A stretch of DNA of 64,000 bases from a virus: the UHGV virus genome UHGV-1383976. The stretch is one strand, 5' to 3'. The translations under genes were made by a program, and so were the position numbers. Below, in pieces: positions 4,623 through 42,161 of this stretch; positions within the stretch are counted from its first letter, which is position 1, and every line of letters starts with the position of its first letter. Under the pieces are notes generated by a model. It was given only the letters and a program-made list of their open reading frames with translations, did not search any database and was not told the DNA's origin.

Positions 4623-4645
4623 ATTTTTGACTTCCAGCTTATATT

Positions 4646-12044: not shown

Positions 12045-12130
12045 GCGGGTGTGTCGGAATGGGTAGACGATATGGACTTAAAATCCATTGGCGGGATGCT
12101 GTACGGGTTCGAGTCCCGTCACCCGTACCA
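12045..12130 (+). tRNA. tRNA-Leu(TAA), type II, CCA encoded
   Basis: Acceptor gcgggtg/cacccgt. Anticodon arm atgga-cttaaaa-tccat. Long variable arm. T-arm gggttcgagtccc. Confidence 0.8.
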
Positions 12131-12313
12131 AATGATAATAAGTAGTGCAGTGAATTCTTCCTAAGCCAATGTGTATGGTAGGCCAATCAAGATAATTAGG
12201 GTTAAGTATTCATGGGTCATGCACGGCTCTGCTTATTATCATTACCAACTGTCGTTCTCAATAGCGACTTAGAAGCAATTCTCAAAAAGTATCAAAAAGA
12301 AAGGAGAAAAGGG

Positions 12314-13216
12314 ATGTCATTTTTCGTAAGGACAGCAACTGATCGGTATGGGGATACAAATAGTTATCCTCGTTGGGGCAGAATAGTGGGATGCGCTATA
12401 GGAGCACTACTTGTTCTGATTATAATTCTCTCTTGTTTCACCAAAGTTCCTACTGGTAATACTGGTATCGTCACTACATTTGGTAAGGTTGAGAATTATA
12501 CGCTGGATTCAGGTTTTCATCTAAAGGCTCCATGGCAGAAGATAGTTAAGATGGATAATCGCGTTCAGAAGCAGAGTATTGATTTGATGTGTTTTTCTTC
12601 TGATATTCAGGAAGTATCTATGACTTATACAATTAACTTCCAGATTAGTAAGAGTGATGCAATGACGATTTATTCTACCATCGGAACTCATTATTATGAA
12701 ACCGTTATTATGCCTTGTATTACTGAGTCAGTTAAGACAGTTTGCGCACGATATACCGCTGAAGAGTTAGTGGGCATGAGAAGTGAACTTGCTTCAGCAA
12801 TAGAGGCAGATCTTTCTGAGAAGCTAATTAATTACAACATAGAGCTTGTTTCTACCTCTGTTGAGAACATGGATTTTACTGATGTCTTTACTGATGCTGT
12901 TGAAGCAAAGCAGGTTGCAGCACAGAATAAGCTCACTGCACAGACTCGTGCCGAGCAGGAAGTTATTGAAGCCGAAGCGGCGGCTAAGGTTCAGGTAATT
13001 CAGGCACAGGCTGATGCAGATGCCATGGTTGCTAAGGCCCAAGCCGAGGCAGAAGCAACTCGGATTCGTGCAGAAGCTGAAGCAGAAGCCAATGCAAAGG
13101 TCGCAGCGTCTCTAACAAATGCACTAATTGATTATACTTATGCGCAGCATTGGGATGGTAAGTATCCTACCTATTATGGTGGTAACGGTACAACTCCTGT
13201 TATCGATCTTAGATAA
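12314..13216 (+). CDS. SPFH/band-7 (prohibitin/HflK-like) membrane protein
   Basis: N-terminal transmembrane segment CAIGALLVLIIILSCF. SPFH core ...TGIVTTFGKVENYTLDSGFHLKAPWQKIV.... Ala/Glu-rich coiled-coil tail. Start taken at the ATG at 12314 with SD aaaggag. Confidence 0.7.
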   Translation: MSFFVRTATDRYGDTNSYPRWGRIVGCAIGALLVLIIILSCFTKVPTGNTGIVTTFGKVENYTLDSGFHLKAPWQKIVKMDNRVQKQSIDLMCFSSDIQEVSMTYTINFQISKSDAMTIYSTIGTHYYETVIMPCITESVKTVCARYTAEELVGMRSELASAIEADLSEKLINYNIELVSTSVENMDFTDVFTDAVEAKQVAAQNKLTAQTRAEQEVIEAEAAAKVQVIQAQADADAMVAKAQAEAEATRIRAEAEAEANAKVAASLTNALIDYTYAQHWDGKYPTYYGGNGTTPVIDLR

Positions 13217-13254
13217 ATAAATGAGCTGGCATCTCAATAAACTGCCATTAATAT

Positions 13255-13330
13255 GCCCAGATAGCTCAGCAGGTAGAGCAGAGGATTGAAGATCCCCGTG
13301 TCGCTAGTTCGATTCTGGCTCTGGGCACCA
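13255..13330 (+). tRNA. tRNA-Phe(GAA), CCA encoded
   Basis: Acceptor gcccaga/tctgggc. Anticodon loop ttGAAga. T-arm gctagttcgattctggc. One A-C mismatch in the anticodon stem. Confidence 0.7.
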
Positions 13331-13358
13331 TTTGGGATTGTTTACTGTTTCTTGTTCC

Positions 13359-13398
13359 CTTAATTGCAAAAGTGCATGAGTAGCAATTAAAAAACATC
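13359..13398 (+). terminator. intrinsic terminator after tRNA-Phe
   Basis: taattgcaaaagtgcatgagtagcaattaaaaaaca. Confidence 0.5.
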
Positions 13399-13501
13399 TA
13401 AGCGGCGTGTATCGTTGGTCATTCGAGGGCTATGTCAAGGCTTAAAAGACCACAGTCGATTGGGGTTGGTAAACCTCCTGCGGGGAAGCTTCCATTATTA
13501 T

Positions 13502-13584
13502 GGGCGAGTGGTGGAACTGGTAGACACAGTAGCCTTAGGAGCTACCACTTCAGTGTAGGGGTTCGAGTCCCCTCCCGCCCACCA
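13502..13584 (+). tRNA. tRNA-Leu(TAG), type II, CCA encoded
   Basis: Anticodon arm gtagc-cttagga-gctac. T-arm aggggttcgagtcccct. Acceptor has one A-C mismatch. Confidence 0.7.
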
Positions 13585-13704
13585 TAAGTCTCCAAGAGGA
13601 TGGATTCCGGCTAAACTACCACCGGCGCACAATGTGTGATATGTGGCTTTGTCATTTGTGGAGACTATAATAAATAAAAACGAAAGTAAGCCGTTTTGAA
13701 ATAT

Positions 13705-13789
13705 GGGGGATTGGTGAAATAGGTAGACACGTGGCACTCAAAATGCTATGGCGAGAGCCGTATCAGTTCAAATCTGATATCCCCTACCA
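13705..13789 (+). tRNA. tRNA-Leu(CAA), type II, CCA encoded
   Basis: Acceptor gggggat/atcccct. Anticodon arm tggca-ctcaaaa-tgcta. T-arm atcagttcaaatctgat. Confidence 0.7.
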
Positions 13790-13812
13790 TTTACACAATA
13801 AAAGGAGATAAA

Positions 13813-14397
13813 ATGTCAAAGAATTTTTACATTAGTGACACCCATTTTGGACACGCTAACATTCTGAGATTTGATAGACGCCCATTCAATTCTGTTGAAG
13901 AAATGAACGCCGCGCTCATCAAGAATTGGAATGACGCAGTTGACCCGAATGACAATATTTACATACTGGGCGATTTTTGCTGGGGCAAGTCTGATGAATG
14001 GATTGATATTTTGTCTCAGCTCCAAGGCAACAAATATCTTATTGCAGGCAACCATGACTTGCGTAATCCTCCTTCTACTGTGCGGCGGTTCTTTCAGGAT
14101 TGGCGCGACTACAAAGAAATTTCTAACAACGATCGTAAGGTTATAATGTGTCATTATCCGATTCCATTTTACAAGTCAGATTACAACTCAAACACTTATA
14201 TGTTATTTGGTCATTTGCATACAACATTTGAGAATGAATATCTGGAAAATTTGCGATATCAAATAGAAAATGATCCTTATGAGCGGCCAGCCAAAAATCT
14301 TTGTCAGTTTTATAACGTCGGCTGTATGATGCCGTGGATGGACTATACACCGCGCACATTGGATGAAATTGTAGATGGATTTGCTAAGTTCCATTGA
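13813..14397 (+). CDS. calcineurin-like metallophosphoesterase
   Basis: ISDTHFGH...YILGDF...GNHD motifs. 194 aa. Confidence 0.7.
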   Translation: MSKNFYISDTHFGHANILRFDRRPFNSVEEMNAALIKNWNDAVDPNDNIYILGDFCWGKSDEWIDILSQLQGNKYLIAGNHDLRNPPSTVRRFFQDWRDYKEISNNDRKVIMCHYPIPFYKSDYNSNTYMLFGHLHTTFENEYLENLRYQIENDPYERPAKNLCQFYNVGCMMPWMDYTPRTLDEIVDGFAKFH

Positions 14398-14409
14398 AGG
14401 GGAATAGGC

Positions 14410-14961
14410 ATGGCAGTAAATAAAGGATATTTAACAGCAAAAACAGATAAAGAGTCTGATGAAGTATATACACCAGCATATGCTGTTCGACCTTTGGTTA
14501 AGTATTTGCGATTTTTTGAAAAAATAAAGGGGCATCCAATAAAAATTTGGTGTCCTTTTGATACGCAAAGCTCGCAATATGTTCAAGTGTTTAGAGAAGC
14601 TGGTTTTGAGGTTATTCACTCTCATATTGAGGAAGGGAAAAATTTCTTTTTCTACGAACCCGATGAACGGTATGATATTATTATTTCGAATCCACCTTTT
14701 TCACAAAAGGACAATGTTTTGAAACGTTTGTTTGAGTTAAACAAGCCATATGCGATGTTATTGCCAATTCCAGCCTTGCAAGGGCAAAAGCGTTTCCCTT
14801 ATATAAAAGATGGACTACAATATCTTGGTTTTGATAAGAGAATTAATTATTATACTAATGCAGATTTTTCTCAAGTGCAAAAAGGGGTTTCTTTTGGTTC
14901 TTGTTATTTGTGTAAGCAATTTCTTCCAAGAGATTTAATTCTTGAAGAGTTGGAAGCGTAA
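14410..14961 (+). CDS. small NPPF-motif protein, phage Dam-like N6-adenine DNA methyltransferase candidate
   Basis: DIIISNPPFSQKDNVLKRL resembles MTase motif IV. Paralog of 16582..17358. Confidence 0.45.
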   Translation: MAVNKGYLTAKTDKESDEVYTPAYAVRPLVKYLRFFEKIKGHPIKIWCPFDTQSSQYVQVFREAGFEVIHSHIEEGKNFFFYEPDERYDIIISNPPFSQKDNVLKRLFELNKPYAMLLPIPALQGQKRFPYIKDGLQYLGFDKRINYYTNADFSQVQKGVSFGSCYLCKQFLPRDLILEELEA

Positions 14962-14966
14962 AAAAT

Positions 14967-15054
14967 GCGGGATGAACTCAGACGGCTCTGAAACCGGTCT
15001 TGAAAACCGTGGGCAGGCAAAACCTGTGGGGATCGACACCTCCGTCCCGCGCCA
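14967..15054 (+). tRNA. tRNA-Ser(TGA), type II, CCA encoded
   Basis: Acceptor gcgggat/gtcccgc. Anticodon arm ccggt-cttgaaa-accgt. Variable arm gggcaggcaaaacctgtgg. Atypical T-loop. Confidence 0.6.
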
Positions 15055-15058
15055 ATAT

Positions 15059-15144
15059 GCGGAGTAAATTTAGAAGGTCTAAAGCTCCCCTGCTAAGGGA
15101 TGCGTGGTGAAAACCATGGGGTTCGCGTCCTCTGCTCCGCGCCA
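15059..15144 (+). tRNA. tRNA-Ser(GCT), type II, CCA encoded
   Basis: Acceptor gcggagt/gctccgc. Anticodon loop ctGCTaa. Variable arm tgcgtggtgaaaaccatg. Confidence 0.6.
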
Positions 15145-15232
15145 GCCCCATCTTCAGTTCTATAGCTGGTGAAGATGGATAGGCGATGAAGTATAGCAAT
15201 AATATGGCATGAGAACTATGATAGTGTTTCAT

Positions 15233-15322
15233 GAGAGCGTAACTCAGTCGGTAGAGTTTTATAGCGTGAAGGGATATGCTATTGAATGCCCTTAGTCGCC
15301 AGTTCGAATCTGGCCGCTCTCA
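15233..15322 (+). tRNA. tRNA-like gene with oversized anticodon region (pseudo-tRNA or insert-containing tRNA); no encoded CCA
   Basis: Perfect acceptor gagagcg/cgctctc, D-arm and T-arm gccagttcgaatctggc. A 40-nt stretch between them contains the stem aaggg/ccctt around a 15-nt loop, atatgctattgaatg. Confidence 0.4.
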
Positions 15323-15350
15323 TTAAAAATATATATGAAGAGGAATAGTT

Positions 15351-15605
15351 ATGGCAATTAATATCATTAGTAAAGGAATAGATTTAAATAATCCTACCTA
15401 TGAAACACAGTGTCCTCATTGTAAATGTGTGTTTACCTATCAAGATTCTGATACTACTCAAAAACCTACTGGTAGATATTATAAAGATTTTGAGGAGTAT
15501 TTCATTAAGATGGATGATTGCAATAGGAAAGAAATTGCTGTGTATATTGATTGCCCTTGGTGCCATGAAAGAAACCATGTGAAAGATAAATATGTAAAAA
15601 TATAA
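15351..15605 (+). CDS. zinc-finger protein (84 aa)
   Basis: CPHCKC...CPWCHERNH. SD agaggaatagttATG. Confidence 0.55.
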   Translation: MAINIISKGIDLNNPTYETQCPHCKCVFTYQDSDTTQKPTGRYYKDFEEYFIKMDDCNRKEIAVYIDCPWCHERNHVKDKYVKI

Positions 15606-15610
15606 TAAAT

Positions 15611-15643
15611 GGCTCAGTAGCTCAGAGGCAGAGCGTGCGGCTG
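15611..15643 (+). other. truncated tRNA 5' fragment (acceptor 5' strand plus D-arm only)
   Basis: ggctcag-ta-gctcagaggcagagc is a canonical tRNA 5' third. No anticodon arm, T-arm or 3' acceptor follows. The PD-(D/E)xK-like gene at 15667 is inserted immediately downstream. Confidence 0.45.
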
Positions 15644-15666
15644 TTTACTTGACCTTATCATTCTTT

Positions 15667-16098
15667 ATGAAAAAGATAATGAATAGTAAGCAAAAAGGAA
15701 ACATTACAGAACTTGAAACAATGTTAGCATTTCTAAAACTTGGTTATAATGTTTTAACTCCATATGGAGATTGTGAGAGATATGACTTTGTTGTAGATGT
15801 TAATGGAAAATTTATTCGAGTTCAAGCTAAAACATCAAATACTGAAGATGATGGTGCATCATTTAAATTTTCTTGTAGAAGTTGCAATAGAAAAGATGGT
15901 AAAATTGTGCATCATATATATTTAAGCGAAGAAATTGATTACTTCGTAACTACTTTTAATGGAAAATGTTATTTAATTCCAGTTGAAGAGTGCGGAGCTG
16001 ATAAAAGACTTCGTATTCTTCCAACAAAAAATGGACAGGTAAGAGGTATTACTTGGGCAAAAGATTATGAATTGGAGGAAGTAGTAAAGAATTGGTAA
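15667..16098 (+). CDS. PD-(D/E)xK-like nuclease family protein (paralog of 17599..17958), possible homing-type endonuclease in the tRNA island
   Basis: GDCERYDFVVDVNGKFIRVQAKTSN is a D...(E/Q)xK-like core. Start at the ATG at 15667 (MKKIMN). Confidence 0.45.
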   Translation: MKKIMNSKQKGNITELETMLAFLKLGYNVLTPYGDCERYDFVVDVNGKFIRVQAKTSNTEDDGASFKFSCRSCNRKDGKIVHHIYLSEEIDYFVTTFNGKCYLIPVEECGADKRLRILPTKNGQVRGITWAKDYELEEVVKNW

Positions 16099-16158
16099 GC
16101 TGATGTGTAAGCAACCGCAAGGTCGAGATATCGTAATTCTCCTGAGCCTCCATATTAT

Positions 16159-16234
16159 GCGCCATTAGCTCAGTTGGTAGAGCATGGCACTTTTAATGCT
16201 GGGGTCTGCGGTTCAAGTCCGCAATGGCGCACCA
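16159..16234 (+). tRNA. tRNA-Lys(TTT), CCA encoded
   Basis: Acceptor gcgccat/atggcgc. Anticodon loop ctTTTaa. T-arm tgcggttcaagtccgca. Confidence 0.8.
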
Positions 16235-16254
16235 TAAATTTTGGAGGAAGTAAA

Positions 16255-16515
16255 ATGAAGCTGACAGAGAAAGGGACAATTGTATTTGCCGCTGCGTTAG
16301 AGCATTGTCCCAATGAACCTTTTACAGCGGCCAGTTTATCAACAAAGTGTGGCCTTCCTATTTCTGCAGCTACACTCAATGGTATCACCAATCAGGGACT
16401 TATGACTCGACTTGGCGGTTCGCCCGTTAAGTTTGAGTTAGTTTCTAACGCGAAAGACTTGTATAACAAGGCGCGCGAAGGCAAATCGGCGAATGAAAAT
16501 TTAAATAAAGCGTAG
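16255..16515 (+). CDS. hypothetical protein (86 aa)
   Basis: SD ggaggaagtaaaATG at 16255. The track ORF start at 16174 overlaps the tRNA. Confidence 0.5.
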   Translation: MKLTEKGTIVFAAALEHCPNEPFTAASLSTKCGLPISAATLNGITNQGLMTRLGGSPVKFELVSNAKDLYNKAREGKSANENLNKA

Positions 16516-16581
16516 GTTGCGAAAAATGATGAGTTTTATACTCAATATCAAGACATTGAAAAAGAGATTCTGCAGTATGAC

Positions 16582-17358
16582 TTGCGTGGTAAAAAGGTTT
16601 TATGTAATTGTAATGATGGTTTGACAAGTGAGTTCTTAAATTATTTTGTCAATAATTTTGATTGTCTTGAACTTGATGAACTTGTTTGTTTGACTTATAA
16701 TAAAGATGGAAAGGCATATAAGTATACCAAGCGTCCTAAAGTTGACCTTATGGTTGAACCACTCATCGGTTCTGGTGCATTTGATTCACAGGAAGGCCGA
16801 GATGCTCTTGCCGCTTGTGATATTGTTATAACAAATCCTCCCTTTAGTCAATTTCGAGATTTTGTCAATTTGATTTTGTCTTACAAAAAAGATTTTTTGA
16901 TAATTGGCAGTAAAAATGCTATTACCTACAAAGAATTTTTTCCACTTTTAATGAGTGGTAAAGTTCATATTGGCAATTTCAATGTTTCTACTTTTAAACA
17001 GCCAGATGGTACTGATAAAAAATTTGGTAATATCGGTTGGTTTACGACTCTTTCTGTTGTAAAAGCGGCACAACCAATTCCTTTAACAGCAACCTATGAT
17101 CCGCAAAATTATCCTACTTATGATAACTTCCGTGCAATTGAAGTAAGTCGCACAGCTAATATTCCTAAGGACTATGATGGCGTAATGGGGGTTCCTATTT
17201 CATTTCTGGACAAATTTTGTCCTACTCAATTTAAAATTGTTGGATGGAGTCGTCATAATGACGAAGGAATGGATGGCGGATACTGGACGGGTGGTTGTGC
17301 TGATGCTACTATAAATGGTAAGCAAGTTTATCGCAGAATTTTGATTCAGAAAATTTGA
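16582..17358 (+). CDS. NPPF-motif protein, Dam-like DNA methyltransferase candidate (paralog of 14410..14961)
   Basis: DIVITNPPFSQFRDFVNLI. 258 aa. Confidence 0.45.
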   Translation: MRGKKVLCNCNDGLTSEFLNYFVNNFDCLELDELVCLTYNKDGKAYKYTKRPKVDLMVEPLIGSGAFDSQEGRDALAACDIVITNPPFSQFRDFVNLILSYKKDFLIIGSKNAITYKEFFPLLMSGKVHIGNFNVSTFKQPDGTDKKFGNIGWFTTLSVVKAAQPIPLTATYDPQNYPTYDNFRAIEVSRTANIPKDYDGVMGVPISFLDKFCPTQFKIVGWSRHNDEGMDGGYWTGGCADATINGKQVYRRILIQKI

Positions 17359-17400
17359 TTTTTATTAAAATTTTCGATATAATATATATAGAAAGTTGAG
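17355..17400 (+). promoter_or_regulatory. class I promoter
   Basis: TTGATT-17-TATAAT, then ATATATAGAAAGTTGAGAGAGAAAC. Confidence 0.6.
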
Positions 17401-17598
17401 AGAGAAACTTCCAGAGGTTGCGAATTAGCTATTCAATACAAAATCTCTCAAAATGATAAGGTTTTCGGTGTTTTACTTATCGGTTTTCTATGCAAAATGG
17501 TTCTAACAAGCCAGCGTGCGCGCGAGTAAAAGTTGTTAATAAGCGGTTGGCATACGTGATAAGCCGTTGCCCCAGCGAGAAGATTTAATAAATCTTCT

Positions 17599-17958
17599 TT
17601 GTTGGTGGTGTTTAATAAAAATGCGTCAGTAGCAACCCAGTGGTATGATTTGATTATAGAAAAAGATGATAAATTTGAAACAGTACAATGTAAGTGTACT
17701 GGTTCTCAGAACAACGTCATTAGTCTAAAGTCTTGTGGCGGTACAAAAGGTGAAGCTTATGACAATGTTCTTAATCATTCTGGGCTTGATAAATTATTTT
17801 GCGTGGATATAAATGGTAATATGTACGTGATCCCGATGTCAGAGGTTGTGGCATCTGGAAATACTAAGCAAATTACTTTACGTACTGAACCCACAGCAAA
17901 TAATCAAGGTTTTCAAACTCATAAATTTCGAGTTCAATTCTCGTTTCAAGCGTCGTAA
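17599..17958 (+). CDS. PD-(D/E)xK-like nuclease paralog, N-terminally shortened; GTG or TTG start, possible pseudogene
   Basis: WYDLIIEKDDKFETVQCKCTG aligns with YDFVVDVNGKFIRVQAKTS of 15667..16098. No in-frame ATG near the 5' end. Confidence 0.4.
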   Translation: MLVVFNKNASVATQWYDLIIEKDDKFETVQCKCTGSQNNVISLKSCGGTKGEAYDNVLNHSGLDKLFCVDINGNMYVIPMSEVVASGNTKQITLRTEPTANNQGFQTHKFRVQFSFQAS

Positions 17959-18008
17959 ACCCGTTTCCTTCGAGAGTAACTGGATCGACACCAGTCTGAC
18001 GCACCATT

Positions 18009-18082
18009 TCGGGAATGTGGTGTAATGGTAGCACACTTGATTTGGGGTCAAGGAGAGTGGTTCGAATCCAACATTTCCGACC
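18009..18082 (+). tRNA. tRNA-Pro(TGG), CCA encoded
   Basis: Acceptor cgggaat/atttccg. Anticodon arm cttga-tttgggg-tcaag. Weak T-stem (3 bp). Confidence 0.55.
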
Positions 18083-18086
18083 AAGA

Positions 18087-18174
18087 TGCTGAGTTCCCAT
18101 AGTGGTCGATTGGAGCGGTCTTGTAAGCCGCAGACTTCGTGTCCGCATCAGTTCGAATCTGATACTCAGCTCCA
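18087..18174 (+). tRNA. type II tRNA, Tyr-like (GTA), with an apparent 8-nt anticodon loop CTTTGTAA
   Basis: Acceptor gctgagt/actcagc. Anticodon stem gcggt/gccgc flanking an 8-nt loop. Variable arm agacttcgtgtccgc. T-arm atcagttcgaatctgat. Confidence 0.55.
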
Positions 18175-18178
18175 CTAT

Positions 18179-18254
18179 AAGGGAGTAGCCCAATAGGTAA
18201 GGCAGCAGTCTCCAAAACTGAAGATTAAAGGTTCGAGTCCTTTCTCTCTTGCCA
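18179..18254 (+). tRNA. tRNA-Trp(CCA), CCA encoded
   Basis: Anticodon loop ctCCAaa. T-arm aaaggttcgagtccttt. Acceptor aagggag/ctctctt with G-U pairs. Confidence 0.65.
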
Positions 18255-18288
18255 ATAATTTCATTTTTCAAATTTCCTTTCTTAAAAT

Positions 18289-18335
18289 TTGACTTTTTCA
18301 AAAAATCTTGATATAATATATACATAAGATAAAGA
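18289..18335 (+). promoter_or_regulatory. class I promoter (variant) driving a 13-codon leader ORF and a structured RNA region
   Basis: TTGACT-17-TATAAT, then atatacataagataaagaaaagaaaaag, then SD aaaggagg, then ATGctagtgccacctacacgtggtgtcctctgttttcgcTAA. Confidence 0.55.
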
Positions 18336-18359
18336 AAAGAAAAAGTCAAAAGGAGGACA

Positions 18360-19060
18360 ATGCTAGTGCCACCTACACGTGGTGTCCTCTGTTTTCGCTA
18401 AGAGCGCTGGCATATATCCAATTAAATAATACTAACTCAGTGAAGACGGAATTCGATGTTCCGGCTGAGAAATTCCAGCTAGCACAGCAGAAACGAAACA
18501 AGGATACTTGTGGATACTGGACTGAGAGGCCATCGAGAGATGAGCCGAAGTAGAGCGGTCGCTCAAGTGGGAAGAAGAGCAGGAATTGTGCTGAGTGAAT
18601 CGCAAGCAAACGCAGCCGTGGAGTGGCGAGCGCAATAGACAGCTTGGTGAATAGCCAAGCCGAACCCAAGTTAGGTCTTAGTTGGTGCCTGTGGCAATCC
18701 TTGGGAAAACCAATAAGCTCGTTCCGTTGAGACGACAGGGAATGTGAAATCTGTCTTTGACACTCTACAGCATCCGAGTAGCGGAACACAACGGGGACTT
18801 ATAGAAAAGATGGTCAGTAATAATAGAAATTGCTATTTTATCTTTCTGAACATCCCGTGAAAGGTAGAGGTAATCAACCCTCTGGCGGATTAGGCGACAT
18901 TAGACACTTGGGCTATCCAAGAGTAACAAGTCAATGTTGTTGCTGGGGTAAGAAGTGTATGGGCGACGGCCTGTATGCTCAGACTTATCTCCCGCGTGGC
19001 AGAATATGCTTGAAGGTTTATCGAGGTAGGGCGAAGGCCCAGTAATATTTAGTTGGATTT
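18360..19060 (+). ncRNA. GC-rich ORF-free structured region (candidate large ncRNA) downstream of a strong promoter
   Basis: About 700 nt with stops in all frames of all three codon types and visibly higher GC than its surroundings. Only spurious minus-strand ORFs in the track. Confidence 0.35.
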
Positions 19061-19064
19061 ATAT

Positions 19065-19137
19065 GGCAGGACGAGAAGGTTCTCCATTTGGCCTCATAAG
19101 CCAGATTTCGTGGGTTCGATTCCCACTCCTGCATCCA
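19065..19137 (+). tRNA. tRNA-Met(CAT), CCA encoded
   Basis: Anticodon arm ttggc-ctCATaa-gccag. T-arm gtgggttcgattcccac. G-A mismatch at acceptor position 1-72. Confidence 0.6.
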
Positions 19138-19140
19138 TAT

Positions 19141-19215
19141 GTCGTATTGGTGTTAGTGGCAGCACGATAGCCTTCCAAGCTATATGGAGGAGTTCGAGTC
19201 TCCTATACGACTCCA
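19141..19215 (+). tRNA. tRNA-Gly(TCC), CCA encoded
   Basis: Acceptor gtcgtat/atacgac. Anticodon arm atagc-cttccaa-gctat. T-arm ggagttcgagtctcc. Confidence 0.8.
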
Positions 19216-19361
19216 TTTTAGAAATGTCTTGAACGACAGGAGGTTTTGCTTATGGATATAACAAAATCTAATGAGGACTGCGGTCCAACGAACAGGACAA
19301 AGAGTTGGGCCTCTCTATAAAAAGGCCCTCGTAAGAAAATTTGGAAAGGAAGTAAAGTAAA

Positions 19362-19775
19362 ATGAAGTATTATAGTGATGTTCTTCATACGCTGTTTGAT
19401 ACTCAGGATGCGCTTGAGGAAGCCGAAGCGAAGAAAACCGCGGCAGATGCTGAGAAAGTACATGCAAAAGAAACGGCTAGAAAACGTAGAGAAGAAGATA
19501 AAGAACGTTTCCTTGAGTTGAGAAAGAAGTTCAATAAGATCAGCACTGAGTATGACAAGACATCTAAAGAGTATATGGACTATGCTGATAAGATGATGCA
19601 GGAGTATTCATTAGATGCTGTGCTGGATTGGCTTTCTGATGCTTTTCTTTATGATTGTGCCACAGCTAAGACGAAAGCAGATGCATCATCTACCACAACT
19701 GCTACCACGAAAACTGCGCGGGAGCCTGAAAACTTGGGAGAAATTCTTGCCCGTATTTTTGAGGATATGCGCTGA
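19362..19775 (+). CDS. hypothetical acidic coiled-coil protein (scaffold-like?)
   Basis: 137 aa, rich in E/K/A. SD gaaaggaagtaaagtaaaATG. Confidence 0.55.
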   Translation: MKYYSDVLHTLFDTQDALEEAEAKKTAADAEKVHAKETARKRREEDKERFLELRKKFNKISTEYDKTSKEYMDYADKMMQEYSLDAVLDWLSDAFLYDCATAKTKADASSTTTATTKTAREPENLGEILARIFEDMR

Positions 19776-19789
19776 GAATTTTGAATAAA

Positions 19790-20330
19790 TTGGCGCGATT
19801 GATTATCAAATCGTCCCACGGAGTTGAAGCTAAAACGTTAGCGGTGAATATGGCCATTCCCGCAAGCTCGGCGGTTTGTTAGGCAACCGCGCGGATGTAA
19901 ATTATTGATAGGAAACTTTGGTTTAATTTACTCACTGAAGTTCTCCAAAAGTCGAACTAGAGCCTAAACTGAGTTCGCAGTGCTGAGGCCGGCATACGCT
20001 CGGAGAGGATGCGTTATTGAGCTAATTGGATTAGTGTCAATGTGAGGCAACGGTGGCCAACTCTTAGAGAGCCACGCGACAGAGTTATGCTAAAAGGCAA
20101 TGCCCAGTATCGGTGCCACTAGGGTTGATAGACAAGTAGTAAAAGTCAGGTGAAGACAATACCGGCTGACATAATTGGGACGTAGTCATAGGCGTAGGCC
20201 GTGCCAAAACTAAAAATCAAAGTGTGCGGCACACGAAACCCAAGTCAGATGCGGGCGATTGAAACGGCGCCCTCAACCCATATAAGGTTTTACAAGAGAT
20301 TTTCCTTGTGTTAGACTAAAAAATCTCTTT
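19790..20330. ncRNA. second GC-rich ORF-free structured region (candidate ncRNA or degenerate tRNA-like array)
   Basis: About 540 nt with no ORF. Contains an anticodon-arm-like hairpin gcggtt-tgttaggc-aaccgc. Confidence 0.3.
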
Positions 20331-20343
20331 TTTGTATAAATTT

Positions 20344-20418
20344 AGAGGTATAGTGTAATTGGCAACACATCGGCCTTTGACGCCGTATTTATAGGTTCGA
20401 GTCCTGTTACCTCTGCCA
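20344..20418 (+). tRNA. tRNA-Gln(TTG), CCA encoded
   Basis: Acceptor agaggta/tacctct. D-arm gtgtaattggcaacac. Anticodon loop ctTTGac. T-arm ataggttcgagtcctgt. Confidence 0.65.
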
Positions 20419-21160: not shown

Positions 21161-21481
21161 ATGGATAAATATACTGGCTATTATGAGTGGCATCCATCAG
21201 AACAAGGACTTGAGGATTTTTATTCTGGCCTTTTTACACCTGCAGGGATGGGCTTGGTTGAAAACCAGTATTTGATTATCTATGACTCCGAAGATAAGGT
21301 TATAGATAAATATTTTTGTAAGAACAATGAATTTGAAAAGGTTCATTATATGGCGCTTCAAAGCGATTACTGTGGGGTTATCAAACCACGCAATGTATAT
21401 CAGGAATTGGCTATTCATTCCCTTATGGATAGACGTGTTCCCGTAAAAGTTTTGGGTGGCGTCTTTGGCTCGGGTAAATAA
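21161..21481 (+). CDS. phoH: phoH-like ATPase, exon 1 (N-terminal part, ending inside the Walker A motif)
   Basis: ORF ends ...VKVLGGVFGSGK then a stop, so the P-loop is cut after GK. The C-terminal PhoH homology resumes at 22412-22942. Confidence 0.55.
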   Translation: MDKYTGYYEWHPSEQGLEDFYSGLFTPAGMGLVENQYLIIYDSEDKVIDKYFCKNNEFEKVHYMALQSDYCGVIKPRNVYQELAIHSLMDRRVPVKVLGGVFGSGK

Positions 21482-22426: not shown

Positions 22427-22942
22427 AGCGGGGCTTGTTTTAGCTTTATCGAAAAAGGTATTTTTGAAAAACTTGTTTATATACGCCCCAATATCACGCT
22501 TGAAGGAGTGCCTGATATTGGCTACCTCAAAGGCGGAATGGACGAAAAGCTTGAATGGACTTTAGCTCCATTATGGGATAAGTTCGGTGGCCGCGAAGCT
22601 ACTCAAAATCTTGTTGCTTCTGGCAAGATTGAGCTTGTAGCCTTACCTTTTATCAAAGGTCGCAGTTTTGAAAACAGCATTATTTATGTCAGTGAAGGCC
22701 AGAACATTACTCGTAAAGTCGCTGGCAATATTATTAGTCGCGCTGGTGAGGGCACTGAAATTTGGATAAATGGCGACTATCACAGTCAGACCGATCGCAG
22801 AATGTTTGAGGTTGATAATGGTATGCGTGCGATGGAGGAAACCCTGAAAGGCAATGCGCTCTATGAAACTATTTATCTTCCTATTACAGAGCGTTCTGCT
22901 GTAGCTCAACTTGCTGGAATTGTTTGTAACACTGAAAATTGA
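22412..22942 (+). CDS. phoH: phoH-like ATPase, exon 2
   Basis: IRP...LGYL...VALPFIKGRSFENSIIYVSEGQN...IWINGDYHSQTD parallels E. coli PhoH TRP...[24 protein letters not shown]...VITGDVTQIDL. Confidence 0.6.
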   Translation, partial: KDLLMSGACFSFIEKGIFEKLVYIRPNITLEGVPDIGYLKGGMDEKLEWTLAPLWDKFGGREATQNLVASGKIELVALPFIKGRSFENSIIYVSEGQNITRKVAGNIISRAGEGTEIWINGDYHSQTDRRMFEVDNGMRAMEETLKGNALYETIYLPITERSAVAQLAGIVCNTEN

Positions 22943-33354: not shown

Positions 33355-33401
33355 ATAAAAATATAAGATAATTGAGATTTTACAAAAGGAGATCAATTCA
33401 A

Positions 33402-37617: not shown

Positions 37618-38823
37618 ATGCTTGATGTAAAAATTTTTGCACGTTGTATTGAACAGACCGCTGAAGAGCAAATATACGATTTAGCCGCCTCGTCGATAGG
37701 AGAAAACGCGCACATACGAATAATGCCGGATGCGCACGCTGGTAAGGGATGCGTAATTGGAACTACTATGTTAGTAAAAGATAAGATTTGCCCTAATATT
37801 GTTGGCGTTGACATTGGATGCGGAGTTACTGCTGCAAAAATTAACTGTCCTTTGATCATGGATGAGTTAATGTTTTTGCGCGAACGCCTTGTAGATGGCG
37901 CAATACCATCAGGAAGCACTATATACAACGAATTTAGAGATTGGGATCCTTTTTTTGAACTTGGCGCAACTATCCTTCGTAAGTTGAGATGTAAGGAAAT
38001 TTACAATAAGTGTGAAATTGATTATTTTGCTAAGTCTATGGGAACACTCGGAGGCGGAAATCATTTCATTGAAATAGACGAAGACTCCGATGGCAATCAT
38101 TGGATTGTTGTACATACTGGCTCGCGCAATTTGGGCCTTCAGGTAGCAAAGTATTATCAAAACAGAGCAGAAATGCGAATTCTTGAAGAATATACTCACA
38201 AGCGTAATGCAGCTATCACTACGCTGAAAGAGGAAGGCCGCCAGCGTGAAATTTCAGAGGTATTAGCCTCTATCAAAAAAGATGCGCCATCTAAGTTTGA
38301 TTATTTAGTAGATAATGACTATAATAACTATCTTCGCGATATGGCACTTTGTCAGAAGTGGGCAAAATATAACCGAGCAAATATTATTTATAACATTGCT
38401 GCAATTTTAAATCGCAAAGTTACAATGACAGTTGAGTCAGTTCATAACTATATAGATTTTTCAACTCAAACACCTATCCTCCGCAAGGGCGCAATTTCGG
38501 CTAAGTATGACGAGATTTGTCTTATTCCACTCAATATGCGGGATGGTACGCTACTGTGCCGTGGAAAAGGTAACTCTGATTGGAACTTATCAGCTCCACA
38601 TGGAGCCGGACGACTTATGTCTCGCGCTCAGGCAAGAAAAGAATTATCTTTAGACGAGTTTGAAAAATCAATGGACGGCATTGTGTCAAACGTTTGTGCA
38701 GAAACCATTGATGAAGCACCTTTCGCTTACAAGAATTGGGAAGAGATTGAAGAAGCTGTGCGGCCTACCGTTGAAATTATTGACCACTGGAAGCCAATTT
38801 TCAATTTTAAGGCGATGTCTTAA
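37618..38823 (+). CDS. rtcB: RtcB-family RNA ligase (3'-phosphate/5'-hydroxyl)
   Basis: MPDAHAGKG, GVDIGCGV, GGGNHFIEID and HTGSRNLG are RtcB signature motifs. 401 aa. Confidence 0.85.
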   Translation: MLDVKIFARCIEQTAEEQIYDLAASSIGENAHIRIMPDAHAGKGCVIGTTMLVKDKICPNIVGVDIGCGVTAAKINCPLIMDELMFLRERLVDGAIPSGSTIYNEFRDWDPFFELGATILRKLRCKEIYNKCEIDYFAKSMGTLGGGNHFIEIDEDSDGNHWIVVHTGSRNLGLQVAKYYQNRAEMRILEEYTHKRNAAITTLKEEGRQREISEVLASIKKDAPSKFDYLVDNDYNNYLRDMALCQKWAKYNRANIIYNIAAILNRKVTMTVESVHNYIDFSTQTPILRKGAISAKYDEICLIPLNMRDGTLLCRGKGNSDWNLSAPHGAGRLMSRAQARKELSLDEFEKSMDGIVSNVCAETIDEAPFAYKNWEEIEEAVRPTVEIIDHWKPIFNFKAMS

Positions 38824-39505: not shown

Positions 39506-40342
39506 ATGATAAATCCGCAGGAATATGTAAATAAGGCATATCAGCTTGGCGAAAAGGTTTATGGTAATCGTCTTATATTCGCCGCACATTACGGCTCTTT
39601 CAATTATGGCCTTGCCGATGAGGAAAGCGATTGTGATGTCGCTCTTATTGTAATGCCATCAATGGAGGAAATTGTAAGGTGTGAAAGCTCCAACACTCCA
39701 TTGAAGCACGTTCCTGAAGGCGACATTGATGTAATTGATGTTCGCACTTTTGTTAGACGATTGGCTAACGCTGAGCTTAATTCTCTTCAGTATCTTTATG
39801 CGCCTTATCACAAGTGGAATGAATATTGGAATGATACTTTCGCGTCTCTTCACGGCAAGTTTCTTTGGGATATTGCTATGATAAATCCGTATGAACTTTT
39901 CTATAATATGCGGGGTGTAATAGCCCGCGCAAGTAAGCGAATGGATAATGTTAGTGAGAAAAATCCCTTTAGTCCATCTTGCTCTAAAGCTATTTATAAT
40001 GCAATGCGAATGATCGACCTTGCGAACGCATTCGCTGATGATATTGAGGAAAATGGTCTTGGCACTTATAACGACATCAATATATTTTCTTGGGAGTATG
40101 GTGTTCATAGTAGGAAGGACTTGATGGCAATGAAACGCGGTTTATATTCATACACAACCGCCCGCGATTGTATTGATTCGTGTATGAAAGAAATTGATAA
40201 GTTCCATGATATATTTATCAATGAGGACAATGAAACCATAGCTTTGGATAATCGTGCGGTACAGCGTCTTGAGCGAATGATTGAAGGCGCTCTCATTAAA
40301 CTTTACTTCAATGAAGCGGCTACACCAAAATTTTGGTCATAA
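39506..40342 (+). CDS. nucleotidyltransferase-fold protein (Pol-beta superfamily); possible tRNA or RNA end-modifying enzyme
   Basis: YGSFNYGLADEESDCDVALIV matches the hG[GS]x9-13Dh[DE]h NTase signature. SD aaaggag. Confidence 0.55.
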   Translation: MINPQEYVNKAYQLGEKVYGNRLIFAAHYGSFNYGLADEESDCDVALIVMPSMEEIVRCESSNTPLKHVPEGDIDVIDVRTFVRRLANAELNSLQYLYAPYHKWNEYWNDTFASLHGKFLWDIAMINPYELFYNMRGVIARASKRMDNVSEKNPFSPSCSKAIYNAMRMIDLANAFADDIEENGLGTYNDINIFSWEYGVHSRKDLMAMKRGLYSYTTARDCIDSCMKEIDKFHDIFINEDNETIALDNRAVQRLERMIEGALIKLYFNEAATPKFWS

Positions 40343-41843: not shown

Positions 41844-42161
41844 ATGAATCTTTGGGTTGATGATATTAGAACTCCGCCCTTTGATAGCTATGTGTGGGCA
41901 CGTTCTGTAAATGAAGCCATTACCGCTATCAAATCCTATGAGAGAAATTTCACTGGCGGCGACACTATTTTTATTAGTCTCGATCATGATGCTGGCGATT
42001 TTGCGAAAGATGGCGGAGATTATATTCATATTTTAAACTGGCTTGAGCGAGAAAAAATCGTAGACACTGGATATTTTTTTCATCTTCATACTATGAATCC
42101 TGTGGGAAGAGAAAATATGGAGAGAATTATTAGAAAAAATGGATGGAGGTTAGTGAAGTAA
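41844..42161 (+). CDS. hypothetical protein (105 aa)
   Basis: SD aaaggag. Confidence 0.5.
   Translation: MNLWVDDIRTPPFDSYVWARSVNEAITAIKSYERNFTGGDTIFISLDHDAGDFAKDGGDYIHILNWLEREKIVDTGYFFHLHTMNPVGRENMERIIRKNGWRLVK

Follow-up and report, generated by a model that had tools for sequence, protein, structure and literature searches.

The locus raises the question of why, inside an island of phage tRNA genes, a tRNA 5' half directly abuts a nuclease gene. The window, i.e. the whole analysed stretch of 64,000 nt from virus genome UHGV-1383976, is part of a 129-kb phage contig. A first-pass annotation had counted about 16 tRNA or tRNA-like genes in two islands, which agrees well with the 15 tRNAs found by ARAGORN, all on the + strand (12 in 12045-20418 and three in 40401-41409), and the 14 backed by Rfam at gathering score. 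A permissive scan added a candidate at 15233-15322 (44 bits) and a tRNA-Ser-like gene at 14966-15051, and inspection by eye together with folding a further tRNA-Ser(GCU) at about 15059-15146. The island also contains a ROOL RNA adjoining tRNA-Met (19060), which had been overlooked.

12045..20418, + strand: tRNA island (ARAGORN, Rfam, permissive scan, eye and folding) with Leu-UAA, Phe-GAA, Leu-UAG, Leu-CAA, Ser-UGA, Ser-GCU, an odd tRNA (15233-15322), split Asn, Lys-UUU, dead Tyr, Pro, Thr, Trp, ROOL, Met, Gly and Gln
18412..19059, + strand: full-length ROOL RNA (RF03087, 271.8 bits against a gathering score of 99.1)

A mobile element in the anticodon loop of tRNA-Asn

The 5' fragment, previously placed at 15611-15643 and described as a truncated tRNA, is real, but it extends to 15645 and belongs to a gene that is split rather than truncated: the 3' half of the tRNA-Asn lies directly 3' of the nuclease ORF. 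Alignment to tRNAs of relatives gave an exact match to an uninterrupted tRNA-Asn of another phage (L005). Since both exons are base-for-base those of this empty site, the boundaries of the insert, which begins with UAC and finishes with AGC, are unambiguous. When introns were allowed, ARAGORN called one tRNA over 15611-16152.

15611..15645, + strand: tRNA-Asn(GUU) 5' exon, nt 1-36, with anticodon GTT at its end (exact match in L005)
15646..16112, + strand: intervening sequence of 467 nt between nt 36 and 37 (empty site in L005)
15667..16098, + strand: homing endonuclease gene, 143 aa, PD-(D/E)xK, I-Ssp6803I family (PF11645 PDDEXK_5, E 1.3e-30)
16113..16152, + strand: tRNA-Asn 3' exon, nt 37-76 including CCA (identical in L005)

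The locus is a mobile element inserted exactly between positions 36 and 37 of the anticodon loop of tRNA-Asn(GUU), the sole such gene seen in the window. The T arm of the 3' exon is unusual (GAGAU-AUCGUAA-UUCUC) and recurs in L001 and L002 with a compensated acceptor stem. Apart from the 143-aa endonuclease gene, the insert consists of 35 non-coding bases (21 + 14). The endonuclease, which has 34 viral relatives, aligns with PDB 2OST (I-Ssp6803I; E 6.9e-9) including the YD...D...VQxK motif, a catalytic motif of the metal-dependent DNA-cutting type.

The earlier proposals that the island holds two paralogous PD-(D/E)xK-like nuclease genes, and that homing elements have invaded its tRNA genes, are borne out as to family and history: both ORFs match PF11645 and are 29% identical over 92 aa, the intact copy matches 2OST, and the insertion at 36/37 of tRNA-Asn, the empty sites and the I-Ssp6803I family membership all fit invasion by homing. 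Only the gene at 15667 is intact, however. ORF 17599-17958 matches PF11645 (E 7.7e-8) over profile positions 33-125 only, and in BLASTP it aligns with residues 39-124 of the intact copy only. Its endonuclease-derived part, from which about 38 codons at the N-terminal and about 20 at the C-terminal end are missing, stands in place of nt 14-33 of a tRNA-Tyr, as comparison with L087 revealed, and the junction between the two falls exactly at 33/34. These alignments show the second ORF to be what was left when an invasion failed and the tRNA-Tyr gene was destroyed by it.

17623..17635, + strand: tRNA-Tyr(GUA) remnant, nt 1-13 (collinear with the intact 85-nt tRNA-Tyr of L087)
17636..17954, + strand: PF11645 endonuclease gene fragment of 319 nt, corresponding to ORF 17599-17958 (Pfam, BLASTP, L087 comparison)
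17955..18006, + strand: tRNA-Tyr(GUA) remnant from nt 34 to CCA, variable arm damaged (L087 comparison)

Inserts 83-88% identical to that of the window are flanked by exons with only 68-75% identity, and empty insertion sites are present in other phages. Among about 30 cultured Enterococcus Schiekvirus phages, EFP01 alone carries the insert; in the others the annotated tRNA-Asn at this position is uninterrupted. Spread of the element between phage tRNA genes by homing is well supported by these genome comparisons. ARAGORN accepts the joined exons as a tRNA in 32 of the 35 cases examined (window and L006-L039); the exceptions are L019 and L033 with damaged 5' exons, and L039, which lacks the 5' flank. 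Moreover, another tRNA with the same anticodon lies nearby in only one of 32 loci. The valid joined exons and the near absence of duplicate anticodons hint that the tRNA may still matter.

A long hairpin at the ends of the insert

Across 27 distinct relatives, the 5' UTR measures 3-36 nt in all but one (75 nt in L032) and the 3' UTR 0-15 nt, and the inserts finish in C or A, never in G. No Rfam intron match was obtained over the window insert at E<=1, and RF00028 had no match over the inserts of the window or 10 loci even at permissive thresholds; the same model does detect two other group I introns in the window and one in the tRNA-Leu of L013. Nor did any Rfam ribozyme or intron match any of these inserts (window and 10 loci). 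Synonymous-site diversity is even along the endonuclease ORF (0.23-0.48). As judged from sequence, these data show an element without a ribozyme. The first-pass annotation had missed both the 3' exon and this lack of room for a ribozyme.

About 40 related inserts in seven tRNA species follow a common pairing rule: the three terminal bases of the insert are complementary to the anticodon, from which the helix extends into the insert. The anticodon/insert-terminal trinucleotide combinations are GUU/AGC, GAU/AUC, UUG/CAA, UUU/AAA, UGU/AUA, CCA/UGG and UUA/UAA. Over 26 distinct junctions the six pairs of this helix, Pa, are 97.4% canonical (paired in 26, 25, 26, 26, 26 and 23 of 26), compared to 38-53% in slid controls and 67 +/- 3% after column shuffling, where none of 2000 shuffles reached the observed value. 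In all lineages the helix begins exactly at nt 34 and finishes exactly at the 3' junction, with the 5' junction 3 bp within it. Because G-U wobbles occur, the pairing is in the sense-strand RNA and is not a DNA repeat. A second helix, Pb, cofolds in nearly all loci and shows compensatory changes, e.g. CUCAC/GUGAG in L013. The internal loop between the helices has a motif kept in the Asn/Lys group only; the Ile group lacks it and has loops of 1-2 x 2-3 nt, and the Gln group differs.

15643..15648, + strand: helix Pa 5' strand, anticodon G34 U35 U36 plus insert nt 1-3 (covariation)
15649..15653, + strand: internal loop 5' strand, UUGAC (YUGAC kept in the Asn/Lys group only)
15654..15668, + strand: helix Pb 5' strand, 5' UTR up to the endonuclease start codon (cofold predictions)
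16084..16099, + strand: helix Pb 3' strand, last codons and stop of the endonuclease gene (cofold predictions)
16100..16106, + strand: internal loop 3' strand, CUGAUGU (kept in the Asn/Lys group only)
16107..16112, + strand: helix Pa 3' strand, last six insert nt GUAAGC with the 3' junction at the end (covariation)

Altogether, these data show that the insert ends form a long hairpin in the transcript, consisting of Pa, the internal loop and Pb with the ORF in the terminal loop. Each strand of this one helix carries one of the two junctions; a 3-bp stagger, with a 3' overhang, separates them, and they face each other across the minor groove.

Possible fates of the insert in RNA

The explanation that best accommodates the whole, which we hold tentatively and at slightly less than even confidence, is that the insert is a mobile, protein-dependent tRNA intron without a ribozyme. 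Conservation of the structure suggests its excision from RNA and ligation of the exons. A dimeric endoribonuclease of host or phage would cut both junctions with a 3-bp stagger, the anticodon stem and tRNA body would keep the two exon ends together, and an RNA ligase would rejoin them. RtcB joins 3'-phosphate or 2',3'-cyclic phosphate to 5'-OH ends, and the phage RtcB would be the obvious candidate if the cuts leave 2',3'-cyclic phosphate and 5'-OH. The RtcB and the Pol-beta-fold nucleotidyltransferase noted before at 37618 and 39506 are confirmed by Pfam.

37618..38823, + strand: RtcB RNA ligase (PF01139, E 3.4e-58)
39506..40342, + strand: RlaP-type Pol-beta nucleotidyltransferase (PF10127, 26.6 bits, cut-off 23)
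41844..42161, + strand: cREC_REC cyclic-phosphate-processing receiver domain protein (PF20274, E 8.9e-21)

RtcB occurs in all three checkable intron carriers (the window, contig 158127 and Enterococcus phage EFP01), but it is common in phages (643 records, including 23 of Enterococcus phages), so that specificity to insert carriers is not implied. A Pfam scan of about 90 window ORFs, most of them without a match, gave no candidate splicing endonuclease; it covered phage ORFs from about half the genome. Against splicing, the 5' junction is embedded in a continuous helix without a bulge, unlike the substrates of known tRNA-splicing endonucleases, and RNase III, the obvious helix cutter, gives 2-nt overhangs and ends that RtcB cannot join.

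Alternatively, the insert may remain in the tRNA transcript, the element being a purely selfish cassette for a homing endonuclease whose insertion knocks out a non-essential phage tRNA gene. The hairpin would then serve the element, either as an RNase III-type processing or stabilising stem through which the endonuclease mRNA is released from a polycistronic transcript of the tRNAs, or by controlling translation of the endonuclease. We consider this somewhat unlikely, but it has several observations in its favour. The insert is sporadic, in one of about 30 cultured Schiekvirus phages, and since phage tRNAs are dispensable, a selfish insertion could survive without being spliced; the destroyed tRNA-Tyr of the same window shows that such sister elements do kill tRNA genes, and the 5' exons of L019 and L033 are damaged. 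Furthermore, the bases immediately 5' of the start codon are tied up in Pb, no Shine-Dalgarno sequence is found, and the scan of window ORFs identified no splicing enzyme. However, an mRNA stem would need neither 3 bp of exon nor re-tuning for each new tRNA species, yet seven anticodons are tracked, with exact helix limits at nt 34 and the 3' junction in all lineages. Most exons also remain valid tRNAs, and the interrupted gene is normally the island's only one for its anticodon.

Earlier, the tRNAs, nucleases, methyltransferases, RtcB and nucleotidyltransferase had been read as one repair arsenal against host anticodon nucleases. Part of this is plausible and already known, as phage tRNAs, RtcB and RlaP form a described phage RNA-repair set (PMC7824862), RlaP-type nucleotidyltransferases function in RNA 3'-end repair (PMC12776372), and the cREC domain gene and a metallophosphatase in the window would suit end-healing. 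No observation connects the nucleases or the methyltransferases with tRNA repair. The former, being DNA homing endonucleases, leave tRNA genes interrupted or destroyed; the latter, called small NPPF-motif methyltransferase-like paralogs before, belong to an adenine DNA methylase family (PF13651) and have the NPPF block in common at 29% identity. ORF 14410-14961 matches this family only weakly and below the curated cut-off.

16582-17358: EcoRI-methylase-like ORF (PF13651 EcoRI_methylase, E 2.3e-70)

As RtcB moreover lies 22 kb from the first island, and the split gene and conserved hairpin are left unexplained, a single arsenal is improbable.

For the element to splice itself, the terminal helices and internal loop (YUGAC / CUGAUGU) would have to make up a ribozyme that is very small or goes unrecognised, or the ORF would have to conceal the necessary RNA structure; in a variant, self-cleavage to 2',3'-cyclic phosphate and 5'-OH ends would be followed by RtcB joining. 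Small self-cleaving ribozymes leave such RtcB-compatible ends, the Asn/Lys group keeps its internal loop sequences, with covariation in the helices on either side, and ribozyme-like matches (HDV-like, twister-like) lie beside tRNAs in related loci. Nevertheless, the loop motif is missing or different in the Ile and Gln groups, Rfam finds no ribozyme or intron over any insert, the synonymous sites of the ORF are unconstrained, and two precise cuts would need two catalytic centres in 35 non-coding bases. We give this possibility little credence.

Just as doubtful is that the intron-encoded PD-(D/E)xK protein itself is the splicing nuclease. On this reading the hairpin copies the left half and centre of its DNA target (anticodon stem, U33-A37, anticodon paired to the insert 3' end), and a dimer making a staggered cut in the intron-less gene would cut the RNA at equivalent positions. 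I-Ssp6803I leaves 3-nt 3' overhangs; the RNA junctions, after nt 36 and opposite 33/34, suit such a cut centred on nt 35, and the fragment in tRNA-Tyr finishes at 33/34, its other edge. The tRNA-splicing endonuclease itself has a PD-(D/E)xK fold (PMC3424549). However, the metal-dependent DNA-cutting motif would give 3'-OH and 5'-phosphate ends that RtcB does not join, the window yielded no RNA ligase of the Rnl type, and the insert does not mimic the right half of the DNA site. To our knowledge, the PF11645 family is not known to cleave A-form RNA.

Relation to known elements

The endonuclease family PF11645 and the anticodon-loop target are shared with the mobile group I intron of Synechocystis tRNA-fMet (I-Ssp6803I) and with PF11645-bearing group I introns in tRNA-Arg(UCU) of Bacteroidota and Campylobacterota, as is a homing-type presence/absence polymorphism. 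Those introns are 655 nt or otherwise >500 nt long with a full self-splicing core (PMC1995217; PMC13011429). The insert, in contrast, has 467 nt with 35 non-coding nt, no core and no terminal G, its terminal helix pairs with the anticodon, and it occupies site 36/37 instead of 33/34.

Archaeal bulge-helix-bulge introns, some with homing endonuclease ORFs, are cut by EndA and joined by RtcB. Like the insert they have no ribozyme, an ORF looped from an intron-end helix, an anticodon region paired with the intron, and a 3' site nearer the anticodon stem than the 5' site, the two sites lying on different strands of the helix with a few bp between them; both also have an RtcB at their disposal. The insert differs in having no 3-nt bulges, its sites being 3 bp apart in a continuous helix rather than 4 bp between two bulges, in its bacterial virus setting with no EndA homologue found among the window ORFs, and in encoding a PD-(D/E)xK instead of a LAGLIDADG protein. 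Intervening sequences of bacterial 23S rRNA are excised by RNase III without re-ligation. They too are non-ribozyme inserts in stable-RNA genes whose ends form a long helix, but rRNA stays functional when fragmented, whereas a nick in the anticodon loop would disable a tRNA and make ligation necessary; the junction stagger of the insert is 3 nt, while RNase III leaves 2 nt.

In animals, the SOS splicing of DNA transposons out of mRNAs is likewise reported to remove an element from RNA via paired inverted ends with RTCB involved, but is eukaryotic, acts on mRNA, is imprecise, and uses unrelated elements and an unrelated recognition factor (PMC12779559). The free-standing homing endonuclease SegB of T4/T6 is likewise a selfish nuclease among phage tRNA genes (PMC13096335), and PF11645 homologues of Pectobacterium phage My1 and Kuttervirus phages are located between tRNA genes. 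Lying between genes, these need no RNA removal, whereas the insert sits inside an anticodon loop and forms an RNA structure that involves the exon. The lack of a ribozyme and the constant pairing of the insert ends with the anticodon suggest a type of tRNA intron that has not been described in bacteria and their viruses.

Split tRNA-Asn gene and mobility of its insert

Nucleotides 15611-15645 comprise the acceptor stem, D arm and anticodon stem of a tRNA followed by CUGUU, and 16113-16152, just past the stop codon of a nuclease ORF, comprises AA, the complementary anticodon-stem strand, variable loop, T arm, acceptor strand and CCA. The first-pass annotation had reported a truncated tRNA at this place; the fragment is real, but it belongs to a split gene whose 3' half (16113-16152) follows the nuclease ORF. 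Alignment to tRNAs of relatives showed both halves contiguous and identical in L005, a contig retrieved by searching a viral contig collection with both halves, which reads uninterrupted ...GGCTGTT AACCGCAAGG.... Because this empty site matches the exons exactly, the insert is assigned in unambiguous register to 15646-16112 (467 nt), at the junction between tRNA nt 36 and 37 (36|37). A second phage (L003/L006) carries the interrupted allele with identical exons and a 98% identical insert. With long introns allowed, ARAGORN calls a tRNA at 15611-16152, misnamed as Asp because the junction is placed one base off. The T arm of this tRNA-Asn(GUU) is unusual (GAGAU-AUCGUAA-UUCUC, with U53/U61 replacing G-C and A54...U58 replacing U54...A58), and is kept in several phages (16113-16152; L001, L002, L005, L033) despite compensatory acceptor-stem differences.

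The proposal of a homing element inside a tRNA gene was borne out by the intact copy in tRNA-Asn, whose ORF (15667-16098, 143 aa) encodes a full-length PF11645 protein of the I-Ssp6803I type (106.7 bits against a cut-off of 26.1). Its sole relative of solved structure is 2OST (I-Ssp6803I), to which the YD...D...VQxK block aligns, and E15, D40, Q53 and K55 are invariant in five diverse relatives. Judged from its sequence, the protein belongs to the I-Ssp6803I-type homing endonucleases, with DNA cleavage as its predicted activity. In Synechocystis, I-Ssp6803I is the homing endonuclease encoded by a group I intron of 655 nt that interrupts tRNA-fMet (PMC1995217); other PF11645 genes have been reported from group I introns, each exceeding 500 nt, in tRNA-fMet and tRNA-Arg(UCU) genes (PMC13011429).

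Inserts of different phages are 83-88% identical to that of the window, whereas the surrounding tRNA-Asn exons share only 68-75% identity. Since the inserts are more alike than their exons, the element has passed from one tRNA-Asn gene to another, diverged one. The polymorphism typical of homing, with one target occupied in some phages and empty in others, was found for the window and L003 versus L005, and for the cultured Enterococcus phage EFP01 versus about 29 Schiekvirus phages. EFP01 (KY549443.1, 105242-105777) has a split tRNA-Asn, with the insert at 105278-105740; the record lists only a hypothetical protein there and leaves the tRNA unannotated. The flanks of this locus match about 29 Enterococcus Schiekvirus relatives at 94-98% (97-98% in most), where an intact tRNA-Asn is annotated.

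The second proposed nuclease ORF (17599-17958) likewise matches PF11645 as a distant paralogue of the first and lies in a tRNA gene, but the match covers mid-profile only and the ORF is a dead fragment. The sequence after it is the 3' portion of a tRNA, and L087, a syntenic phage contig found by pattern search, has an intact 85-nt tRNA-Tyr(GUA) at that place. In the window tRNA-Tyr, nt 14-33 are replaced by a 319-nt endonuclease-gene fragment (17636-17954) whose right-hand border is exactly 33|34, and the variable arm has decayed. By this comparison, the region is a dead tRNA-Tyr together with a dead endonuclease, explained most simply by failed repair after cleavage. I-Ssp6803I leaves 3-nt 3' overhangs; if the enzyme here does likewise, with the overhang centred on nt 35, 33|34 is the expected second-strand cut.

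Insert family and anticodon-tuned helix

A protein-guided scan of viral contigs identified 34 loci with the endonuclease (41-97% identity), nearly all with tRNA halves on both sides and with inserts of 462-484 nt. Extra copies were found within these loci, on two MAG contigs and in EFP01. The host tRNAs are mostly Asn(GUU), besides Ile(GAU), Gln(UUG), Lys(UUU), Thr(UGU), Trp(CCA) and one with anticodon UUA, and the insertion point is constant, directly after nt 36. In every lineage the anticodon is complementary to the terminal trinucleotide of the insert (GUU/AGC, GAU/AUC, UUG/CAA, UUU/AAA, UGU/AUA, CCA/UGG, UUA/UAA). The resulting helix, termed Pa, extends into the insert, where nt 1, 2 and 3 pair with nt -4, -5 and -6 counted back from its 3' end. 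Its six pairs are canonical in 26, 25, 26, 26, 26 and 23 of 26 distinct junctions (97.4%), and as many as five pair types occur at one position. When the partner was shifted by 1-3 nt, this value fell to 38-53%, and column shuffles gave 67 +/- 3%, with 0 of 2000 shuffles reaching the observed value, a statistic that is inflated by sequence relatedness. The switches of anticodon that are matched by switches of the terminal trinucleotide are independent events, for which relatedness is no explanation. Pairs were counted (Python) on ungapped, junction-anchored sequences because a MAFFT alignment of the junctions misaligned the Gln and L029 rows.

The U35-G(-2) wobble is constant in Asn hosts, which shows that Pa pairing is selected in the sense-strand RNA and is not a DNA repeat. 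A DNA-level source of the terminal complementarity, such as target-site duplication or cut-and-paste, was rejected because it would predict direct repeats, or exact AAC instead of AGC, and zero G-U pairs. Beyond an internal loop, which is conserved (YUGAC / CUGAUGU) in the Asn/Lys group only, a second helix (Pb) of 10-16 bp pairs the 5' UTR as far as the start codon with the final ORF codons and shows compensatory changes. A 9-bp pairing of insert nt 3-11 with the variable/T region of the 3' exon, drawn from a single sequence, was unsupported in loci with other exons, and the TTGAC motif was discarded as a promoter -35 box because of wrong spacing and position relative to the start codon. The joined loop of the insert host in L029 (about 2950-3500), UUUUAAA with anticodon UUA, would read the UAA stop codon; its register is ambiguous in this AT-rich, palindromic region.

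In the predicted precursor, the tRNA body and anticodon stem are as usual, and a 2x2 loop (nt 32, 33 versus 37, 38) leads from the stem into a long hairpin that loops out the ORF. The base of this hairpin, on its 3' strand, holds the 3' junction, whereas the 5' junction is found 3 bp up on the 5' strand. In the modelled helix, the predicted scissile bonds are on opposite strands with a 3-nt 3' stagger and face each other across the minor groove, which is the pattern of a dimeric nuclease. RNase III was excluded as a candidate since, with cuts staggered by 2 nt, the anticodon loop would keep one surplus base, which misfits exact restoration of the tRNA, and its ends are unsuited to RtcB. The hairpin was also considered as a tRNA mimic for RNase P or RNase Z and rejected in that role: the helix begins at nt 34 and not at insert base 1, the 3' tail is AACC and not NCCA, and the cut positions do not fit.

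The tRNA island, RNA-repair genes and phage

All components listed in the first-pass annotation (tRNAs, nuclease and methyltransferase-like ORFs, RtcB and a nucleotidyltransferase) were identified. ARAGORN detected 12 tRNA genes in 12045-20418 and 3 in 40401-41409, with Rfam concurring for 14, and the two methyltransferase-like ORFs are distant paralogues that match PF13651, one strongly and one weakly. RtcB is encoded at 37618-38823 (PF01139, E 3.4e-58), and the nucleotidyltransferase at 39506-40342 is of the RlaP/Pol-beta type. These two genes lie together near tRNA genes, followed by tRNA-like genes from 40401 and, right after the second tRNA cluster, by a small protein at 41844-42161 (+) with a PF20274 cyclic-phosphate-processing receiver domain (cREC, E 8.9e-21) that enlarges the RNA-end-processing gene set. 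The suggested tRNA repair arsenal is reasonable as far as the tRNA island with RtcB and RlaP is concerned, a described large-phage feature and RNA-repair module (PMC7824862) in which RlaP adds nucleotides to damaged RNA 3' ends (PMC12776372); the nucleases and DNA-methylase-like genes fall outside it. An RtcB homologue with 40% identity is encoded, unannotated, at 140254-141456 of EFP01.

A permissive Rfam scan added a tRNA-Ser-like gene (14966-15051) and an odd 90-nt tRNA (15233-15322), and a further tRNA-Ser(GCU) at about 15059-15146 was seen in the sequence and folds into a cloverleaf. Both tRNA-Ser-like genes (+) have long variable arms, an encoded CCA and unusual D arms, with loops CUUGAAA and CUGCUAA, respectively; both escape ARAGORN, and 14966-15051 scores 41 bits against the tRNA-Sec model. 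The odd tRNA (+; Rfam 44 bits, labelled Phe-GAA by ARAGORN) has 35 nt in place of the 17-nt anticodon arm, with mutually exclusive stems AUAGC/GCUAU and AAGGG/CCCUU that place a GAA triplet in either loop. Its counterpart in L006 (about 2572-2665) shows a compensatory acceptor-stem change from A2-U to G2-C, which argues for selection of the odd tRNA as RNA. For a small intron in this tRNA, a brute-force deletion scan returned many equally valid solutions and singled out none. Among the tRNA-like genes beside RtcB/RlaP, 40401-40481 and 40789-40860 (+) have abnormal anticodon arms, one with a 7-bp stem and the 6-nt loop GGUUAG, the other with a 6-nt loop. The stretches 40482-40788 and 40861-41332, up to tRNA-Glu, comprise about 780 nt that are ORF-free and have no Rfam match.

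The island also contains a ROOL RNA at 18412-19059 (+), matching RF03087 over its full length (model positions 1-574) at 271.8 bits, above the gathering score, with its 3' end directly before tRNA-Met (19060). ROOL is present in the L027 tRNA island as well (4623-5247), and its location near tRNAs and in phages has been described (PMC5737381). A promoter-like TTGATATAATATATA lies upstream of the ROOL RNA at about 18309-18323, and a promoter-like repeat TTTGATTTTT...TTCGATATAATATATATAGAAAG precedes each RNA-gene cluster (about 17358-17395, 18290-18330, 40340-40390 and 41470-41515, +). The 200-nt leader at 17400-17600 is without ORF and is conserved in L087.

In related islands, short anticodon-loop inserts of about 47-67 nt as delimited interrupt other tRNAs at 32|33, 34|35 or 35|36 (L005, minus strand, 379-519 and 4785-4916; L019, 4081-4202 and 4899-5032). 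Each resembles a tRNA minihelix in having a helix of 6-7 bp, a hairpin like a T arm whose 7-nt loop is GGCAGYA in three of four, and the 3' end ACCA. In one case the host tRNA would carry CUA, an amber-suppressor anticodon. Too small for a ribozyme, these inserts may represent a second class of non-self-splicing phage tRNA intron. Sub-threshold Rfam matches were an HDV-like ribozyme immediately 3' of the split tRNA-Asn of L021 (3482-3549, 38 bits), a twister-P1-like element just upstream of a tRNA in L008 (6052-6110, 40 bits) and Y-RNA-like (YrlA) elements next to tRNAs in L021 (1214-1327 and 2044-2160).

The endonuclease of the split tRNA-Asn is encoded on ENA metagenome contig ERZ27261302:k119_164321 (129,281 bp), and in that sample the phage is represented by the interrupted allele only. 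The gene content of the window is that of a large tailed phage (tail-fibre, baseplate, GH25 lysin, ClpP, PhoH, UvrD-type helicase and DNA ligase), and megablast of the island found no close relative at the DNA level among 50,697 deposited phage genomes. Since kindred elements sit in MAGs labelled Clostridium and Ruminococcus and in one cultured Enterococcus phage, the host is probably a gut or rumen Firmicute. The window also contains two ordinary group I introns, and for the lysin gene the second exon is probably the cell-wall-binding part at 35700-36524.

Group I introns of the window and associated ORFs
21466-21741, + strand: group I intron (RF00028) that appears to split the PhoH gene (exons about 21161-21465 and 22409-22942)
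21520-22359, + strand: LAGLIDADG ORF, after the first group I intron
34334-34683, + strand: group I intron (RF00028) after the GH25 domain of the lysin gene (33372-34397)
34729-35451, + strand: HNH/NUMOD3 ORF carried by the second group I intron

Intron class and possible removal of the insert

The genomic evidence tentatively points to protein-dependent splicing of the tRNA-Asn insert, a reading that we hold with reserve, in which the two junctions 3 bp apart would be cut and the exons resealed by RtcB-type ligation. In favour of removal, the helix matches the exon in all lineages, and its ends coincide exactly with the two junctions. Moreover, the joined exons form a valid tRNA in 32 of 35 cases (window and L006-L039), and the interrupted gene is the only one for its anticodon in 31 of 32 loci, within the part of the island covered. 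RtcB is present in all three carriers checked (window, contig 158127 and EFP01), and the window also encodes RlaP, the cREC protein and a metallophosphatase beside the island. A peptide-pattern scan for RtcB co-occurrence returned one shared contig; it missed the EFP01 RtcB and hence is uninformative. Against this stands the rather unlikely alternative that the insert stays in the RNA. A Pfam scan of about 90 window ORFs, the majority of them without any match, revealed neither an EndA/Sen-family endonuclease nor any other splicing nuclease; phages commonly encode RtcB whether or not they carry such inserts; and phage tRNAs are dispensable, the element being plainly able to kill tRNA genes.

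Excision by a cryptic ribozyme is improbable. The insert has 21 nt of non-coding sequence upstream and 14 nt downstream of the ORF (across 27 distinct relatives, 0-15 nt downstream and 3-36 nt upstream, the exception being L032 with 75 nt upstream), in contrast to the about 200 nt or more of a group I ribozyme. The RF00028 group I core (P3-P9) gave no match over 15646-16112 at E<=1, nor at E<=0.1 in 10 related loci over their inserts; the same model detected the two introns elsewhere in the window and one in the L013 tRNA-Leu(UAA). In place of the terminal guanosine of group I introns, the insert ends with C (Asn, Ile) or A (Gln, Lys, Thr), and with G only in Trp, the base being set by pairing with nt 34. 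Also lacking is the 5' splice site of group I introns, which follows a U in a U-G pair with a guide sequence close to the intron's 5' end: position 36 is occupied by G in tRNA-Gln hosts and by A in tRNA-Trp hosts, and this nucleotide pairs with insert nt -3, mostly as U-A. Synonymous diversity is flat along the endonuclease ORF (0.23-0.48), which argues against a ribozyme hidden there, since one should suppress synonymous change. A group I intron was therefore rejected (no RF00028 match, no terminal G rule, 35 non-coding nt, flat synonymous diversity), as was a group II intron, given the insufficient length of the insert, its lack of an initial GUGYG and the absence of an Rfam match. From these sequence features we conclude that the insert is neither a group I nor a group II intron.

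Archaeal and eukaryal bulge-helix-bulge introns have two 3-nt bulges with the cleavage sites and a 4-bp helix between them. Here, the 5' junction lies in a continuous covarying helix and the 3' junction at a 2x2 internal loop, offset by 3 bp, and a hand drawing of the canonical structure failed because the covarying pairs leave zero bulges. The RtcB-type ligase on which this pathway depends is encoded in the window and also in EFP01. By descent, the insert is nearest to group I introns with PF11645 endonucleases in bacterial tRNA genes, and by architecture to archaeal protein-spliced introns with endonuclease ORFs; it departs from both in their defining features. That the endonuclease, predicted to cleave DNA, would itself act on the RNA is likewise improbable.

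Altogether, the element is, as far as its sequence and predicted structure indicate, a mobile endonuclease-bearing tRNA intron without ribozyme, whose RNA structure is tuned to each host anticodon. In the literature searched, bacterial and phage tRNA introns are all self-splicing group I, rarely group II (PMC13011429). Inserts of this kind, with an endonuclease gene but no ribozyme inside a phage tRNA gene, are not described in this full-text literature, which excludes most subscription journals, such that an earlier report may exist. It is conceivable, though less assured than splicing of the insert as such, that large Firmicute phages are home to a family of mobile tRNA introns, the first in the bacterial world to be spliced by protein and not by ribozyme, defined by the helix of anticodon and 3' end, cut 3 bp apart and resealed by RtcB-type ligation.

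Standard tRNA finders overlook such genes in either case, as illustrated by the unannotated tRNA-Asn of EFP01, and this cultured carrier, set against about 29 insert-free sister phages such as EFDG1, makes the question directly testable. If the insert is unspliced, it is a clear case of a homing endonuclease persisting in a stable-RNA gene without any splicing element. If splicing were shown, it would be categorically new for bacteria and phages, constituting a protein-based tRNA splicing pathway in bacteria or their viruses and bearing on how archaeal-type introns could have come from ribozyme introns, or the reverse. It would also bear on the long-standing puzzle of the role of RtcB in bacteria and phages: their RtcB would gain a native splicing role, and tRNA splicing by endonuclease plus ligase would not be confined to archaea and eukaryotes.
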